A stretch of DNA of 64,000 bases from Escherichia coli (GTDB lineage Bacteria > Pseudomonadota > Gammaproteobacteria > Enterobacterales > Enterobacteriaceae): assembly GCF_016026235.1 (NCBI RefSeq), contig NZ_CP065613.1; one strand, written 5' to 3'. Below the pieces are notes generated by a model. The model saw nothing but the letters and a program-made list of their open reading frames with translations, made no database searches and was not told the origin of the DNA. A program made the translations under genes and the position numbers. Shown here piece by piece: positions 11,520 through 54,048 of the stretch. Numbering within the stretch: position 1 is the stretch's first letter; the number at the start of each line of letters is the position of its first letter.

Positions 11520-12476
11520 ATGAACCCGATTGCAGTTACCCTACTCACCGGTTTTTTAGGCGCGGGAAAAACCACCCTGCTGCGCCATATTCTTAACGAA
11601 CAACACGGCTACAAGATTGCCGTGATTGAAAACGAATTCGGCGAAGTCTCCGTTGATGATCAACTAATTGGCGACCGCGCCACGCAGATCAAAACGCTGA
11701 CCAACGGCTGCATCTGCTGTTCGCGCTCCAACGAGCTGGAAGACGCACTACTCGACCTGCTGGATAATCTCGACAAGGGCAATATTCAGTTTGACCGTCT
11801 GGTCATTGAATGCACCGGCATGGCCGATCCCAGCCCGATTATTCAGACCTTTTTCTCCCATGAGATTTTATGCCAGCGTTACCTGCTGGACGGTGTGATT
11901 GCGCTGGTGGATGCGGTACATGCCGACGAGCAGATGAACCAGTTCACCATCGCTCAGTCCCAGGTTGGCTACGCCGACCGTATTCTGCTGACCAAAACCG
12001 ACGTCGCAGGCGAAGCAGAAAAACTGCGTGAACGCCTGGCGCGCATCAACGCCCGTGCACCGGTCTACACCGTCACCCACGGCGACATCGACCTGGGCCT
12101 GCTGTTCAACACCAACGGTTTTATGCTGGAAGAGAACGTCGTCAGCACCAAACCGCGTTTCCACTTTATCGCGGATAAACAAAACGATATTTCGTCGATT
12201 GTGGTGGAACTGGATTACCCGGTAGATATCAGCGAAGTTTCCCGGGTGATGGAAAACCTGCTTCTGGAATCGGCAGATAAACTGCTGCGTTACAAAGGGA
12301 TGCTGTGGATTGACGGCGAACCTAACCGCCTGCTGTTCCAGGGCGTCCAGCGCCTCTACAGCGCCGACTGGGACCGCCCGTGGGGCGATGAAAAACCGCA
12401 TAGCACAATGGTGTTTATCGGGATTCAGTTGCCGGAGGAAGAGATTCGGGCAGCGTTTGCGGGGTTGAGGAAGTAA
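11520..12476 (+). CDS. yjiA: COG0523-family P-loop GTPase (metal chaperone-like)
   Basis: Walker A GFLGAGKTT near the N-terminus and CXCC motif (GCICCS); start taken at ATG 11520 (MNPIAVTLLTGFLGAGKTT), giving 318 aa; the longer ORF-track start at 11436 overlaps yjiX. Confidence 0.85.
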   Translation: MNPIAVTLLTGFLGAGKTTLLRHILNEQHGYKIAVIENEFGEVSVDDQLIGDRATQIKTLTNGCICCSRSNELEDALLDLLDNLDKGNIQFDRLVIECTGMADPSPIIQTFFSHEILCQRYLLDGVIALVDAVHADEQMNQFTIAQSQVGYADRILLTKTDVAGEAEKLRERLARINARAPVYTVTHGDIDLGLLFNTNGFMLEENVVSTKPRFHFIADKQNDISSIVVELDYPVDISEVSRVMENLLLESADKLLRYKGMLWIDGEPNRLLFQGVQRLYSADWDRPWGDEKPHSTMVFIGIQLPEEEIRAAFAGLRK

Positions 12477-12487
12477 TTTTGGATGAT

Positions 12488-12518
12488 GGCCGCCATGGGG
12501 CGGCCTGAATTATTTTTT
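12488..12518 (+). terminator. Rho-independent terminator after yjiA
   Basis: Hairpin ggccgcc-atgg-ggcggcc followed by tgaattattttttg. Confidence 0.55.
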
Positions 12519-12812
12519 GTTCTGATCGCGCAGCATCGCTTCACGTAAAATTGCGTTCAGGCGAGTTTGATAGCCTTTACCTGGTCGCTTCAACCATTCC
12601 ATCACATCAGCATCAATACGCACCGAAGCCTGAGTTTTCAATGGCCGATAAAACTTACCGCGTTCGGCGTTAGACCATTGCTCATCGCTGGAAGGTGGGA
12701 TATCACTGTAATCAATATCTTCGTCGGATTTATTCGCCAGCGCCTTCAGTTCGGCCTCATGCTGCACATCGAGTGTAGAGGAGGTCCCTCGTTTATGTTT
12801 AACCATGCTCAT
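12510..12812 (-). CDS. BrnA-like antitoxin (ribbon-helix-helix C-terminal domain)
   Basis: Internal start MSMVKHKRG... chosen; C-terminal SVRIDADVMEWLKRPGKGYQTRLNAILREAML is the BrnA signature; start overlaps the stop of the upstream toxin gene by 14 bp. Confidence 0.65.
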   Translation of the reverse strand: MSMVKHKRGTSSTLDVQHEAELKALANKSDEDIDYSDIPPSSDEQWSNAERGKFYRPLKTQASVRIDADVMEWLKRPGKGYQTRLNAILREAMLRDQNKK

Positions 12813-13113
12813 AGCGATTCCTCTCTTTACGATCTGCTTTTCGTGCACTGATGATTCGAATAATTTCATTTCCGCTTTCGAAACGGATGGTATGCGCAAC
12901 CAGAATAACCACGATGCCGTAAACCAGGCCGATTGTCTGCCAGCGATACTCACCGTTTTCTATGCGTTCTTGCTGTGACAAATGTTGTGGATCATCAAAC
13001 AATAACACCGCATCTTCAAAGCGGATGCCATGTTTCACCCGATTACTTTTGGCCTTGTTTTCATCCCATTCAAACTCCATTGGCATAATTGCCATCCCTA
13101 ATTGTATATACAA
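12799..13113 (-). CDS. BrnT-like toxin (DUF497, RelE-fold ribonuclease family)
   Basis: MEFEWDENKAKSNRVKHGIRFEDA...ISARKADRKER matches the conserved BrnT pattern (WDExK...KHG...ISxRKAxxKER); start ambiguous between 13113 and the internal Met around 13083. Confidence 0.7.
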   Translation of the reverse strand: MYIQLGMAIMPMEFEWDENKAKSNRVKHGIRFEDAVLLFDDPQHLSQQERIENGEYRWQTIGLVYGIVVILVAHTIRFESGNEIIRIISARKADRKERNRYEHG

Positions 13114-13284
13114 AAATGTATCTACAATTATTCTGCAATTATAGCGTTGATGTTGGAAATAGCATCACGTTTCGAATAATCAACCATAAAATTGACAATG
13201 AGTAAGTTGGACTTGATTCATCCAATAGAATTTCTCGCCTGACATGGCACACTAAACACCTCGCTGTCGGGTAATGACTCCAAC

Positions 13285-13787
13285 TTACTGATAGTGTTTT
13301 ATGTTCAGATAATGCCCGATGACCTTGTCATGCAGCTCCACCGATTTTGAGAACGACAGTGACTTCCGTCCCAGCCTTGCCAGATGTTGTCTCAGATTCA
13401 GATTATGTCGCTCAATGCGCTGAGTGTAACGCTTGCTGATAACGTGCAGCTTTCCCTTCAGGCGTGATTCATACAGCGGCCAGCCATCCGTCATCTATAC
13501 TACGACCTCAAAGGCCGACAGCAGGCTCAGAAGACGCTCCAGTGTGGCCAGAGTGCGTTCACCGAAGACGTGGCCACAACCGTCCTCCGTATCCTGTCAT
13601 ACGCGTAAAACAGCCAGCGCTGACGTGATTTAGCACCGACGTAGCCCCAATGTTCGTCCATTTCAGCGCAGACAATCACATCACTGCCCGGTTGTATGCG
13701 CGAGGTTACCGACTGCGGCCTGAGTTTTTTAAGTGACGTAAAACCGTGTTGAGGCCAACGCCCATAATGCGTGCACTGGCGCGACAT
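13285..13787 (-). pseudogene. insB: IS1 insB', disrupted
   Basis: InsB-homologous frame split into 13527..13787 and 13285..13494 by a frameshift and an amber codon. Confidence 0.7.
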
Positions 13788-13981
13788 CCGACGCCATTCA
13801 TGGCCATATCAATGATTTTCTGGTGCGTACCGGGCTGAGAGGCGGTGTAAGTGAACTGCAGTTGCCATGTTTTACGGCAATGAGAGCAGAGATAGCGCTG
13901 ATGTCCGGCAGTGCTTTTGCCGTTACGCACCACGCCTTCAGTAGCGGAGCAGGAAGCACATCTGATGGAAATGGAAGCCAC
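13706..13981 (-). CDS. insA: IS1 InsA
   Basis: 91-aa [46 protein letters not shown]... (zinc finger plus HTH). Confidence 0.85.
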
Positions 13982-14295
13982 GCAAGCACCTTAAAATCAC
14001 CATCATACACTAAATCAGTAAGTTGGCAGCATTACCAAATTTTAATTACACTTAAGGTGTATATTTTCTATGCAAGCCATCAATTAAAGAGGTGTAATGT
14101 TCTGATGACTATTTGTAATCGTTATACATTCTGACCTGGAGTCAGAAGGTATTTCTCTGTCTGTGTATTCGCAGGCAGTGTGGTTGATTACATGAAATTC
14201 AGTACATTTGTCCTTCTCGCCTGCCTTTCGTCATTACCGACGGTATTGAATTTCGTTTTCCCCATTGGGGTTCTCCGGACAAGGAGTTGTTTGTT

Positions 14296-15528
14296 ATGCC
14301 ACGTTTTTTTGCCCGCCATGCCGCCACGCTGTTTTTCCCGATGGCGTTGATTTTGTATGACTTTGCTGCGTATCTGTCGACGGACCTGATCCAGCCAGGG
14401 ATCATTAATGTGGTCCGTGATTTTAATGCCGATGTCAGTCTGGCCCCGGCTGCCGTCAGTCTCTATCTCGCTGGAGGCATGGCATTGCAGTGGCTGCTGG
14501 GGCCGCTTTCCGACAGGGTTGGCCGCAGGCCGGTGCTGATTACCGGGGCGCTAATATTTACCCTTGCCTGCGCTGCGACAATGTTCACAACGTCTATGAC
14601 ACAGTTTCTTATCGCGCGTGCAATTCAGGGCACCAGTATCTGTTTTATTGCCACCGTTGGTTATGTCACGGTGCAGGAGGCGTTCGGACAGACAAAAGGG
14701 ATCAAGTTGATGGCGATTATCACCTCCATCGTACTGATTGCGCCGATTATTGGCCCGCTTTCCGGCGCAGCTCTGATGCACTTTGTGCACTGGAAAGTCC
14801 TTTTTGCCATCATTGCGGTTATGGGTTTTATCTCATTTGTTGGCTTACTGCTGGCGATGCCAGAGACGGTGAAGCGCGGCGCGGTTCCATTTAGCGCCAA
14901 AAGCGTCTTGCGCGATTTTCGTAATGTCTTTTGCAATCGGCTGTTCCTCTTTGGCGCAGCAACCATCTCTTTAAGCTATATCCCCATGATGAGTTGGGTG
15001 GCTGTCTCGCCGGTGATCCTGATCGACGCGGGCGGCTTAACAACTTCGCAGTTCGCCTGGACACAGGTTCCGGTGTTCGGCGCGGTGATTGTCGCGAATG
15101 CCATCGTGGCGCGTTTCGTTAAAGATCCGACCGAACCGCGCTTTATCTGGCGTGCCGTACCCCTTCAACTGGTTGGCCTCGCGCTGTTGATTATCGGCAA
15201 TCTGCTGTCACCGCACGTCTGGCTGTGGTCGGTGCTGGGCACCAGTCTGTATGCTTTCGGGATTGGTTTGATTTTCCCGACCTTATTCCGCTTTACGCTG
15301 TTTTCCAATAACTTACCGAAAGGGACCGTCTCCGCATCGCTGAATATGGTGATCCTGATGGTGATGTCTGTCTCGGTCGAAATCGGCCGCTGGCTGTGGT
15401 TTAACAGCGGTCGCTTGCCGTTTCATCTGTTAGCCGTTGTGGCAGGCGTTATCGTCGTTTTCACCCTGGCCGGATTGCTTAATCGCGTGCGCCAACATCA
15501 GGCTGCCGAGCTGGCGGAGGAGCGGTGA
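14296..15528 (+). CDS. mdtM: Multidrug efflux MFS transporter MdtM
   Basis: ORF recognised as MdtM/YjiO ([43 protein letters not shown]...); ORF track uses TTG 14287; IS1 end lies 260 bp upstream. Confidence 0.9.
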
Positions 15529-50171: not shown

Positions 50172-50993
50172 TTGTTTAAAGCAAATCATGTTCCGGTATT
50201 AATGTATCATCATGTCAGCCATTGCCCAGGACTGGTTACACTTTCTCCCGAGACATTCCGGAAACAAATGAAATGGTTGGCTGAAAACAACTGGAAAACA
50301 CTGTCATCAGATGAACTGGAGTTTTTTTATCGGGGCGGAAAACTTCCCCGTAAAAGCGTTATGTTGACATTTGATGATGGATACCTTGACAACTGGTTTC
50401 AGGTATATCCTTTATTAAACGAGTTTAATCTCAAGGCACATATTTTTTTAATTACCAGTTTTATTGGAAATGGTCCGGTTCGTCACTCTCCTGGAAAGGA
50501 ATATTCTCATCGCGATTGCGAACATCAAATAGCAACCGGGAATGCTGATAATGTTATGCTTCGCTGGTCTGAAGTGAACGAAATGTTGCAATCTGGTCTG
50601 GTCGAATTTCATGTTCATACACATACTCATACACGTTGGGATAAAAAGTTCACTTCACGAGAAGAACAGTGTAAACATCTTCGGCAGGACTTATTGAGCG
50701 GGAGAGAATATTTAAAAAAAATGACAGGAAAATGCAGTAAACATTTGTGTTGGCCGGAAGGTTATTATAACAAGGATTATATTCAGATCGCTGAAGAACT
50801 TGGATTCCATTATTTATATACAACAGAAAGAAGAATGAATGCTCCAACTAAAGGAACTACACGGATAGGAAGAATAAGCACCAAGGAACGGGAAAATTGC
50901 GTATGGCTGAAAAGACGACTTTTTTATTATACAACACCGTTTTTTTCATCGTTGCTGGCCCTTCATAAGGGGCCAAGATTACCGGATGACTAA
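50172..50993 (+). CDS. shf: Polysaccharide deacetylase-family protein (Shf-like)
   Basis: 273-aa ORF with NodB-type motif (MLTFDDGYLDNW); first gene of a four-gene cluster whose order deacetylase - glycosyltransferase - VirK-like - LpxM-like equals the shf-rfbU(capU)-virK-msbB2 operon of Shigella/EAEC/EHEC plasmids; TTG start preceded by gagggggc. Confidence 0.65.
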   Translation: MFKANHVPVLMYHHVSHCPGLVTLSPETFRKQMKWLAENNWKTLSSDELEFFYRGGKLPRKSVMLTFDDGYLDNWFQVYPLLNEFNLKAHIFLITSFIGNGPVRHSPGKEYSHRDCEHQIATGNADNVMLRWSEVNEMLQSGLVEFHVHTHTHTRWDKKFTSREEQCKHLRQDLLSGREYLKKMTGKCSKHLCWPEGYYNKDYIQIAEELGFHYLYTTERRMNAPTKGTTRIGRISTKERENCVWLKRRLFYYTTPFFSSLLALHKGPRLPDD

Positions 50994-50995
50994 TA

Positions 50996-52084
50996 ATGAA
51001 TATACTATTTACGGAATCATCACCGAATATAGGTGGTCAGGAATTACAGGCTGTTGCTCAAATGAAGGCCCTGAAGAAAATGGGGCATTCAGTTCTGCTT
51101 GTCTGCAGGGAGAACAGCAAAATTGCTTTTGAAGCCAGTAAGTTTGGAATTGATATCACATTCGCGTTATTTCGAAACAGTCTTCACATCCCTACTGCAT
51201 GGAGATTACTCGGAATAGTTCATGGTTTTCAGCCCAATGCAATCGTTTGTCACAGTGGGCATGATAGCAATATTGTTGGTTTAGTACGGTTATTCACTTG
51301 GAAACATCCATTCAGAATTATCAGGCAAAAGACATATTTGACACGAAAAACAAAAGTTTTTTCAATAAATCATTTTTGCGATGAGGTGATTGTTCTCGGA
51401 ACAAGTATGAAGACACATCTGGAGCAGGAAGGATGTCGAACCCGGGTTACTGTTGTGCCTCCAGGCTTTGATTTCCAGAAATTATACGTTGATTCCCGAA
51501 ACAGTTTGCCTCCAAATGTTCTTTCTTGGCTGGCGTCCCGAAGGGGATGCCCCGTTATTGCTCAGGTAGGAATGTTGCGCCCGGAAAAAGGGCACGAATT
51601 TATGTTGAATTTACTGTTCCATTTAAAAATGAATGGACGACAGTTCTGTTGGTTGATTGTGGGGTCTGGTTCGCCTGAACTGCGGGAGCATTTACAGTAT
51701 CAGATTGACAGTATGGGCATGCATGATGATGTTTTTATTGCTGACAATGTTTTTCCTGCCGCCCCCGTATATCGGGTTGCCAGTCTGGTGGTTCTGCCTT
51801 CAGAAAACGAATCGTTTGGTATGGTACTGGCAGAAGCATCGGCATTTTCTGTGCCTGTACTGGCCAGTCAGATTGGTGGAATCCCTGATGTTATTCAGAA
51901 CAACCAGACCGGGACATTGTTACCAGCAGGTAATAAGCACGCATGGATGTGCGCCCTGAATGATTTTTTTAATGACCCTGGGCGTTTTTATCAGATGGCT
52001 CGCCTGGCAAAACAGGATATAGAAGAGCGGTTTGATATTAATAAAACTGCGTTAAAAATACTCACATTAGCGAAGCAAAAGTAA
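50996..52084 (+). CDS. capU: Family-1 (GT4-type) glycosyltransferase (CapU/RfbU-like)
   Basis: 362-aa ORF with retaining-GT C-terminal features (ESFGMVLAEA..., ...GGIPDVI...); second gene of the cluster. Confidence 0.65.
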   Translation: MNILFTESSPNIGGQELQAVAQMKALKKMGHSVLLVCRENSKIAFEASKFGIDITFALFRNSLHIPTAWRLLGIVHGFQPNAIVCHSGHDSNIVGLVRLFTWKHPFRIIRQKTYLTRKTKVFSINHFCDEVIVLGTSMKTHLEQEGCRTRVTVVPPGFDFQKLYVDSRNSLPPNVLSWLASRRGCPVIAQVGMLRPEKGHEFMLNLLFHLKMNGRQFCWLIVGSGSPELREHLQYQIDSMGMHDDVFIADNVFPAAPVYRVASLVVLPSENESFGMVLAEASAFSVPVLASQIGGIPDVIQNNQTGTLLPAGNKHAWMCALNDFFNDPGRFYQMARLAKQDIEERFDINKTALKILTLAKQK

Positions 52085-52088
52085 CAAT

Positions 52089-53039
52089 ATGTTTTCTATA
52101 AGTAACTTATCATTTATCGGTTTCCTTAAAAGGATTATTTTTTCCTCAGATTCACTACCGGGGAAGTGGGAACACAGAAAATTTCGGTTCATGTACATTT
52201 TGCGATGTTCTATAAATCCGGTTGTCAGTATTCGATATTATTATGAACTGCGTTCCTTGCCGTGCATTGAGGATATTCTGGCAATACACCCCACGTTGCC
52301 AGCAAGAATTCATCGCCCTTATTTGCATAAAGGGGGGCGCGCCTGGACCCGTGGACAATATATTCTTGAGCATTATCGCTTTGTGCAAAATTTGCCAGAA
52401 AAATATTCTAAATTTTTGTTTCCACAAAAATCGGTATCATTAGTCCAATTCATCGGGAAAGATGGAGAGAATTTTGATATCCAGTGTTCTCCCAGTGGTT
52501 TTGACCGGGAAGGAGAGTTGATGTTGTCATTGTTTTACAATAAAACAGTTATTGCCCGGTTAACATTTTCAGTCATTCTGACTCAAAATGGACACATTGC
52601 TTTTATTGGCGGATTACAGGGAGCCCCTAAAAATACCGGACCTGATGTTATTCGGTGCGCAACCCGGGCCTGTTATGGGATTTTCCCAAAACGGATTATT
52701 TTTGAAGCATTTTGTGCGTTGATGAAAGCTTGCAATATCTCTGAGTGTCTGGCAGTCAGTGAGCACAGTCATGTTTTCCGGCAATTGAGATACTGGTATC
52801 AGAAACGCAAAACCTTTGTTGCGGTCTATAGTGATTTCTGGGAGTCTGTAGCAGGAAAAACCTGTGGTGACTGGTACAGATTACCAACCCAGGTGATTCG
52901 AAAGCCGCTAAGCGATATAGCCAGTAAAAAACGCTCTGAGTACCGAAAACGATACGCTTTGCTGGATTATATCCATGAAACTACTATCCGCTCTTTGGAT
53001 GCATATCCTGTACACTCAGAACATCAGAATTTAAATTAA
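52089..53039 (+). CDS. virK: VirK-like protein (DUF535 family)
   Basis: 316-aa ORF; assignment rests mainly on its position between the glycosyltransferase and the lipid A acyltransferase. Confidence 0.55.
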   Translation: MFSISNLSFIGFLKRIIFSSDSLPGKWEHRKFRFMYILRCSINPVVSIRYYYELRSLPCIEDILAIHPTLPARIHRPYLHKGGRAWTRGQYILEHYRFVQNLPEKYSKFLFPQKSVSLVQFIGKDGENFDIQCSPSGFDREGELMLSLFYNKTVIARLTFSVILTQNGHIAFIGGLQGAPKNTGPDVIRCATRACYGIFPKRIIFEAFCALMKACNISECLAVSEHSHVFRQLRYWYQKRKTFVAVYSDFWESVAGKTCGDWYRLPTQVIRKPLSDIASKKRSEYRKRYALLDYIHETTIRSLDAYPVHSEHQNLN

Positions 53040-53103
53040 GGTTTGATGTATCCTCTGAATAAAACAGTAATGATAATTTTGGTAGAGGCATTCGCACTAA
53101 ATA

Positions 53104-54048
53104 ATGAAAAAATATAAATCTGAGTTTATTCCTGAATTTAAGAAAAATTACCTTTCCCCTGTTTACTGGTCTACATGGTTCCTTTTGGGAATGATTGCAG
53201 GTATTTCAATGTTTCCCCCTTCATTCAGAGATCCTGTCTTGGCAAAAATAGGGCGTTGGGCGGGCAGATTGAGCAAAAAAGCTCGTCGCAGGGCGACGAT
53301 TAATTTATCGCTTTGTTTCCCGGAAAAGAGTGATACAGAACGGGAAATAATTGTCGACAAAATGTTTGCCACAGCATTGCAATCCATAGTGATGATGGCA
53401 GAACTGGCAATTCGTGGTCCGGAAAAGTTCCAGAAACGAGTGTTCTGGAAAGGCCTCGAAATTCTTGAGGAAATTCGACACAATAATAGAAATGTGATTT
53501 TTCTGGTTCCCCATGGCTGGAGCGTGGATATTCCTGCAATGTTGCTGGCAGCTCAGGGAAAAAAAATGGCCGCCATGTTTCATCAGCAACGAAATCCAGT
53601 GATTGATTATGTCTGGAATTCAGTACGGCGTAAATTCGGGGGGCGCTTACATGCCCGGGAGGATGGGATAAAACCATTTATTCAGTCAGTACGCCAGGGA
53701 TACTGGGGATATTACCTCCCAGATCAGGATCATGGTCCTGAATACAGTGAATTTGCTGATTTTTTTGCGACCTATAAAGCGACATTACCAATCATTGGAC
53801 GTCTGATGAACATCAGTCAGGCTATGATTATACCACTTTTCCCGGTTTATGATGAAAAAAAACATCTCCTGACTATTGAAATTCGGCCACCAATGGATGC
53901 TTGCATTGCCAGCGCGGACAATAAAATGATTGCCCGACAAATGAACAAAACAGTGGAAATTTTGGTGGGGCCACATCCGGAACAGTATGTCTGGGTTTTA
54001 AAATTGTTAAAAACACGCAAATCAAACGAAGCGGACCCGTACCCTTGA
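53104..54048 (+). CDS. msbB2: Lipid A late (secondary) acyltransferase, LpxM/MsbB paralogue (MsbB2-like)
   Basis: 314-aa ORF with long collinear similarity to E. coli LpxM as I recall it (EFIPEF..., RRRATINLSLCFPEKSDTEREIIVDKMFATA, MMAELAIRGPEKFQ, VIFLVPHGWSVDIPAMLLAAQGKKMAAMFH, FGGRLHAREDGIKPFIQSVRQGYWGYYLPDQDHGPEYSEFADFFATYKATLP). Confidence 0.8.
   Translation: MKKYKSEFIPEFKKNYLSPVYWSTWFLLGMIAGISMFPPSFRDPVLAKIGRWAGRLSKKARRRATINLSLCFPEKSDTEREIIVDKMFATALQSIVMMAELAIRGPEKFQKRVFWKGLEILEEIRHNNRNVIFLVPHGWSVDIPAMLLAAQGKKMAAMFHQQRNPVIDYVWNSVRRKFGGRLHAREDGIKPFIQSVRQGYWGYYLPDQDHGPEYSEFADFFATYKATLPIIGRLMNISQAMIIPLFPVYDEKKHLLTIEIRPPMDACIASADNKMIARQMNKTVEILVGPHPEQYVWVLKLLKTRKSNEADPYP

Follow-up and report, generated by a model that had tools for sequence, protein, structure and literature searches.

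InsA binds in the inverted repeat of IS1, and the ends of this insertion sequence have reportedly supplied hybrid promoters to blaTEM-1, in work by Prentki from 1986, and to acrEF in Salmonella, in work by Olliver from 2005. For restriction loci, one of the closest described cases is E. coli C, whose 'empty' immigration control region was reportedly described by Sibley and Raleigh in 2004. This region, found between yjiA and yjiN, is a hypervariable defence island and a known recombination hot region, and its restriction-less 'empty' form in E. coli C has been reviewed (PMC12707154). An IS1 hybrid promoter has also been described for afaA in ST131 (PMC8764528). Such promoters form where an outward -35 in the IS1 inverted repeat is combined with a suitably distant -10 (PMC8764528; PMC9330008 Table 1), and the outcome depends on the distance to the -10, with expression going up at afaA, down at osmB and remaining unchanged at ugd (PMC8764528). 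Deletions that arise via intramolecular transposition are typical of IS1 and leave the element without direct repeats (PMC9330008).

We analysed a 64,000-nucleotide stretch of E. coli DNA (the window; contig NZ_CP065613.1 of assembly GCF_016026235.1) in which an IS1 element at 13270–14036 lies between brnT and the multidrug efflux gene mdtM. Rather than having inserted there recently, this element is probably what an old IS1-associated deletion left behind, now fixed and inactive. The window resembles E. coli C in having the same yjiA to mdtM/yjiN island without functional hsd, mcr or mrr genes. The E. coli C locus (L016:21502–27448; yjiA-DUF262-hsdR'-yjiS-yjiR-rpnD-mdtM) retains a DUF262 gene, a truncated hsdR, yjiS, yjiR and rpnD, and IS1 is absent there. 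The window, in contrast, holds just brnAT and IS1 without the framework genes yjiS, yjiR and rpnD, and is thus emptier than E. coli C. Identity of the window with the published 'empty site' was rejected, since the gene content of E. coli C differs and includes no IS1.

The IS1 element between brnT and mdtM

Genes in this part of the window are ordered btsT-yjiX-yjiA-brnA-brnT-IS1-mdtM-yjiN. The element is a 767-bp IS1 of IS1F type on the minus strand (13270–14036), recognised from its inverted repeats and from its identity to annotated copies. Its IRR (GGTAATGACTCCAACTTACTGAT; 13270–13292, plus strand) forms the left side and its IRL (GGTAATGCTGCCAACTTACTGAT; 14014–14036, minus strand) the right side, and both fit the degenerate IS1 terminal-repeat pattern with 0 mismatches (expected type GGTGATGCTGCCAACTTACTGAT, about 23 bp). 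Inverted-repeat matches numbered six in the window, corresponding to three IS1 copies, compared with 0 expected in shuffled sequences. Identity to annotated E. coli IS1 copies was 99.9–100%, and end-to-end alignment of the 767-bp element gave 9 differences from K-12 IS1F and 72 from IS1A. Together with a match of insA to its family model, these results bear out the first-pass annotation in placing an IS1 terminus at 14036. The gap from there to mdtM, which had been put at 260 bp, is 259 bp (14037–14295), and the proximity itself stands.

Both insA and insB of this copy lie on the minus strand and are transcribed away from mdtM. The insA ORF is intact (13706–13981, minus strand, 91 aa; NCBIfam IS1 transposase model transpos_IS1), with Ala replacing Pro9 of InsA relative to the other IS1 copies examined. 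The A6C slippery motif TTAAAAAAC is present at 13724–13732 on the minus strand, and the insB frame (13285–13787, minus strand) is recognisable and, by alignment to IS1 copies and by RefSeq annotation, broken. A Trp codon of insB has become an in-frame TAG at 13495–13497, a change common to all IS1F-type copies examined, and 1 bp is deleted at 13572|13573, as it also is in the NCTC86 copy at the same locus. RefSeq labels this locus 'frameshifted; internal stop' in near-identical genomes. Because of the TAG and the 1-bp deletion in insB, the element is unable to encode a functional InsAB' transposase of its own; it is IS1 by descent but a dead copy. The IS1F of K-12, next to fecI, is alike in having the same Trp-to-TAG stop in insB and only these 9 differences over 768 bp. 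It occupies a different locus, and the window copy additionally has the 1-bp deletion and InsA Pro9Ala.

The other two IS1 copies of the window are of different isoforms and lie about 1 kb apart (36214–39544), an IS1A-like copy at 36214–36981 and an IS1F-type copy at 38019–38786, the latter upstream of fecI as in K-12. At 35014–36981, the FimD usher is reduced to its C-terminal 381 residues, cut next to the IS1A-like copy, and the type 1 fimbrial operon is truncated because fimD is cut off there. In K-12, genes amounting to about 25 kb separate fim from fec, more than the window can accommodate here, which suggests a second IS1-bounded deletion. Further along (50172–54048) is a chromosomal cluster whose ORF lengths match the deacetylase, capU, virK and lpxM (msbB-type) genes of FDAARGOS_943, which are IS-flanked on both sides in that genome; 50996–52084 is a glycosyltransferase, and 53104–54048 matches LpxM/MsbB. 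The deacetylase-capU-virK-lpxM cluster is plasmid-borne in Shigella and EAEC.

Junctions, missing island and distribution

The left junction (13269|13270) joins the brnT flank to IRR, and the right junction (14036|14037, ambiguous by one C) joins IRL to native DNA upstream of mdtM. The flanking 9 bp differ between the two sides (left TCGCTGTCG, right AAATTTTAA), and no target-site duplication of 8–9 bp flanks the IS1 at 13270–14036, as expected if the element occupies a deletion junction. Its left flank is a toxin-antitoxin pair on the minus strand (12510–13086), composed of brnA (12510–12812) and brnT (12799–13086) and identified by Pfam BrnA_antitoxin and BrnT_toxin and by RefSeq annotation of near-identical genomes. 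The brnTA pair lies directly downstream of yjiA.

In the genomes E05, D7 and MEI005, brnTA is present and IS1 absent, and collinearity with the window ends at 13269 and resumes at 14037. The same gene set lies between the two junction points in all three, over 11,270 bp in E05 and 11,336 bp in D7 (about 11.3 kb). It comprises an Mrr-like nuclease, the type I genes hsdM/hsdS/hsdR, symE, yjiS, yjiR and rpnD, and the interval also takes in the first, rpnD-proximal 207 bp of the 466-bp rpnD-mdtM spacer. The first gene that the window lacks relative to these genomes encodes an Mrr_cat domain, and its start codon is 14 bp past the junction. By this comparison, a deletion of about 11.3 kb would have removed yjiS, yjiR, rpnD and the immigration control region in its entirety. 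The deleted content is read from relatives and not from a direct ancestor, because the brnTA flanks of E05, D7 and MEI005, which serve as proxies, are only 97.2–98.5% identical to the window. The first-pass annotation had stated that IS1 takes the place of the DNA usually found upstream of mdtM. That was right in so far as only 259 bp of the 466-bp spacer are left, but it missed the scale and nature of the change, an apparent deletion of about 11.3 kb that is not strain-specific.

The model implied by that statement, a simple insertion of IS1 upstream of mdtM with the rest unchanged, agrees with an element that is complete to both ends and with right-hand DNA that is the native mdtM upstream sequence. 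It is nevertheless scarcely credible, given that there is no 9-bp target duplication, that the left flank is brnT and not the rpnD side of the spacer, that about 11.3 kb of the collinear relatives is missing, and that 0 genomes have IS1 at this site flanked by native DNA on both sides.

For population counts we used 5,426 complete E. coli genomes, of which 1,112 (about a fifth) have the brnT|IS1 left junction and 450 the exact IS1|mdtM-upstream right junction. NCTC86 is among the 450; it has the structure of the window, with an IS1 that differs at 2 positions. An alternative right junction was found in 661 genomes, the two right-junction counts adding up to about 1,112. These 661 genomes share the left junction; their IS1F-type copy measures 768 bp, and directly next to its IRL comes a 270-bp duplicate of the yghX-3'/yghW-5' region. 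The closest genome, FDAARGOS_943, carries both junctions of the window at 100% identity; its mdtM is frameshifted, and it diverges from the window past about 34 kb. A large E. coli lineage has inherited the same junctions, and the yjiA-brnAT-IS1 haplotype, which is paired with two unrelated right junctions, would have a single origin. The three IS1 copies in the window, IS1 being a classic cause of misjoins, could raise the suspicion that the junction is an assembly artefact from collapsed IS1 repeats; since hundreds of independent complete genomes reproduce both junctions to the base, the probability of this is negligible.

In the 661 genomes with the alternative right junction, the yghX/yghW duplicate (about 270 bp) is fused in frame to mdtM, as for example in EC529 (L009:4059–4330) and also in L010 and L017. 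The first 7 codons of the fusion (16 if the yghW ATG is used) come from yghW, as presumably does the promoter, and the native yghX-yghW locus remains in these genomes.

We hold it quite possible, if not quite probable, that an adjacent deletion started at the IRL end through intramolecular transposition of IS1, with the element anchored at the brnT side and IRL as the end that made the new joints, since one brnT|IRR junction occurs with two unrelated IRL-side junctions. The IS1 adjacent deletions of Turlan and Chandler (1995), as cited in PMC9330008, share with this locus an element kept at the junction without flanking direct repeats, and one unchanged flank with the other joined to a distant AT-rich site (here AAATTTTAA). 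Unlike those laboratory deletions, the event in the window appears to be ancient and fixed in its lineage, with an element that is now dead.

RecA-dependent recombination between two directly repeated IS1 copies, one near brnT and one in the rpnD-mdtM spacer, would give the identical product, with one IS1, no matching flank repeats and both junctions at IS1 ends. IS1 is abundant in the genomes concerned (median 10–11 places per genome), and the island is, as noted above, hot for recombination (PMC12707154). Synthetic junction queries for single-insertion intermediates (IS1 with a 9-bp duplication and the island present) detected none at either site in the 5,426 genomes. The mdtM-site query gave 0 matches in these genomes, and the brnT-site query gave one, to an IS1 end of 93% identity that lies some 200 bp out of register relative to the start of the Mrr-like nuclease gene. 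Because no intermediate occurs among the 5,426 genomes, a deletion made by transposase is indistinguishable from IS1 × IS1 recombination. Recombination nonetheless seems somewhat unlikely, as neither single insertion was found in any genome, and one left junction with two unrelated right junctions is more economical with a single active IRL end; neither point is decisive.

The mdtM 5' region and a candidate hybrid promoter

The window carries an intact mdtM (14296–15528, plus strand) encoding an MFS multidrug efflux protein of 410 aa. It matches the MdtM equivalog model NF011932 over its full length (855 bits, against a cut-off of 700), and 399 of the 410 residues (97%) are identical to those of K-12. 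Annotations of NCTC86 and of further junction-bearing genomes likewise show the gene as intact.

The 259 bp between IS1 and mdtM (14037–14295, plus strand) are, by alignment, the retained mdtM-proximal part of the native 466-bp rpnD-mdtM spacer, and they align from base one to the mdtM-proximal spacer in 4,014 genomes. Identity to IS1-free alleles is 93.6–98.6%, the first 39 bp are invariant across nine genomes, and haplotype-specific SNPs lie at 14076, 14167 and 14171. The comparison of 14037–14295 with K-12 that the first-pass annotation had proposed found the stretch retained and differing mainly by an 11-bp insertion in K-12. This insertion, TTGCAGTCTCG, lies about 85–95 bp upstream of the mdtM ATG and is absent from the eight other genomes compared. 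A 56-aa ORF at 14180–14350, which overlaps the start of mdtM, was rejected as a gene because the K-12 insertion falls inside it.

Retained upstream of mdtM are the ytiE leader ORF, a hairpin and the mdtM ribosome-binding site. The ytiE homolog (14099–14134, plus strand), assigned from the K-12 annotation (b4823, 11 aa) and from alignments, carries GTT where the GTG start would be (14101 G>T) and keeps an in-frame ATG at 14105. Among the genomes compared, 14101 G>T was found elsewhere only in FDAARGOS_943, where mdtM is frameshifted. The hairpin (14129–14147, plus strand) overlaps the stop codon of ytiE and, with a T-rich tract after it, is terminator-like. Its stem is conserved and its loop varies, reading CCGAA in K-12/O157 and CTGGA in other strains. 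Hairpin and ytiE together resemble a leader-peptide attenuator, possibly for mdtM. An Rfam scan of 12400–14600 returned only a sub-threshold chance match and no family for the hairpin, and the stability of the leader RNA fold is only slightly above that of shuffled sequences (z = -2.2).

Chromosomal luciferase fusions of ytiE are translated and robustly expressed in K-12 (bioRxiv 10.1101/2021.07.02.450978), so an active native promoter must be present upstream of ytiE. No transcription start for mdtM or ytiE was located in the literature searched (TSS, Cappable-seq and 3'-end supplements and papers on MdtM physiology, the large tables probably being covered incompletely). The top-scoring candidate in the native spacer is TTGATT-16-TACACT. 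The junction cuts the spacer of this candidate, whose -35 lies just past that point, in the deleted DNA. The window has a candidate hybrid promoter at this place (14023–14052, plus strand; consensus and PWM), with a -35 TTGGCA in IRL (14023–14028), an 18-nt spacer and the native -10 TACACT (14047–14052). It matches 9 of 12 consensus positions and scores 11.7, compared with 11.1 for the native candidate, on a rough sigma-70 PWM of consensus frequencies; the 18-nt spacer is suboptimal. Consensus promoter matches numbered 5 against 1.9 +/- 1.6 expected in shuffled sequences, chance matches being common. Complete outward promoters inside IS1 near IRL were rejected, with scores of at most 5.7.

A hybrid IS1/native promoter for ytiE-mdtM, with an effect on mdtM expression, is plausible from these matches. 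Tentatively, we propose that the deletion endpoint fell in the spacer of the most likely native promoter of mdtM. The native -35 TTGATT and everything upstream of it would have been replaced by IRL, whose outward TTGGCA would make a hybrid promoter of similar predicted strength, with TACACT, ytiE, the hairpin and the ribosome-binding site all retained. Under this proposal ytiE-mdtM would still be transcribed, from a -35 that overlaps the insA promoter in a repeat bound by InsA. IS1 has an inward promoter-like site there by consensus, CTGCCA-16-TATGAT (14002–14029, minus strand). The outward TTGGCA and the inward -35 CTGCCA are the same base pairs (14023–14029) on opposite strands, and the two sites would compete because TTGGCAG is the reverse complement of the inward -35. 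The candidate shares with the fusion promoters of blaTEM-1, acrEF and afaA an IS1 -35-like hexamer 16–18 nt from a -10-like hexamer of the flank, here upstream of an efflux gene. It differs from them in that the window candidate (18 nt, a sequence match) seems to stand in for a native -35 whose predicted quality is similar.

IS1 would be regulatorily neutral if the native mdtM promoter lay wholly within the retained 259 bp. The 93.6–98.6% identity of this stretch and its first 39 bp, invariant in nine genomes, are in keeping with neutrality, as are the preserved ytiE, hairpin and ribosome-binding site, the intact mdtM and a weaker candidate, TTTTAA-16-TATTTT, that lies wholly inside the retained DNA. 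We consider neutrality unlikely, since ytiE starts 62 bp from the junction, so that a contained promoter would need a 5' UTR of at most 27 nt, and the only candidates there score far lower than the native one (5.6 vs 11.1). It is distinctly unlikely that the native promoter was removed, that the hybrid site is non-functional and that mdtM is poorly expressed and drifting to loss. This is what one might read from a native candidate, TTTACA-16-GATATT (9/12), that lies entirely in the deleted DNA, from the mutated GTG start of ytiE in the sub-lineage of the window and from the frameshifted mdtM of FDAARGOS_943, the closest genome. Yet the mdtM of the window is intact and 97% identical to that of K-12, and the gene is annotated as intact in NCTC86 and others, though the junction must predate the divergence of these strains.

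IS1 beside mdtM in the E. coli lineage

The mechanisms involved are textbook IS1 biology, and an event of this known kind is unsurprising to a specialist. In a fuller scenario, replacement of the native -35 by IRL would make ytiE-mdtM depend on a -35 shared with the insA promoter, so that efflux would track IS1/InsA load, and loss of the restriction genes, rpnD, yjiR and yjiS would perhaps allow more plasmid uptake; we regard this combination as highly improbable.

The value of the finding is mainly for annotation. IS1 beside mdtM, in about one-fifth of complete E. coli genomes, marks loss of the restriction island, whether or not the mdtM 5' region is replaced as well, and is not to be taken as a recent insertion or as a resistance-linked promoter-up mutation without RNA data. 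Many carbapenem-resistant clinical isolates now belong to the lineage with the deletion. Should the hybrid promoter prove real, the locus would be a natural, long-fixed example of an IS end standing in for a housekeeping -35. The absence of the restriction genes of the island and of rpnD from a widespread lineage could affect its acceptance of foreign DNA.
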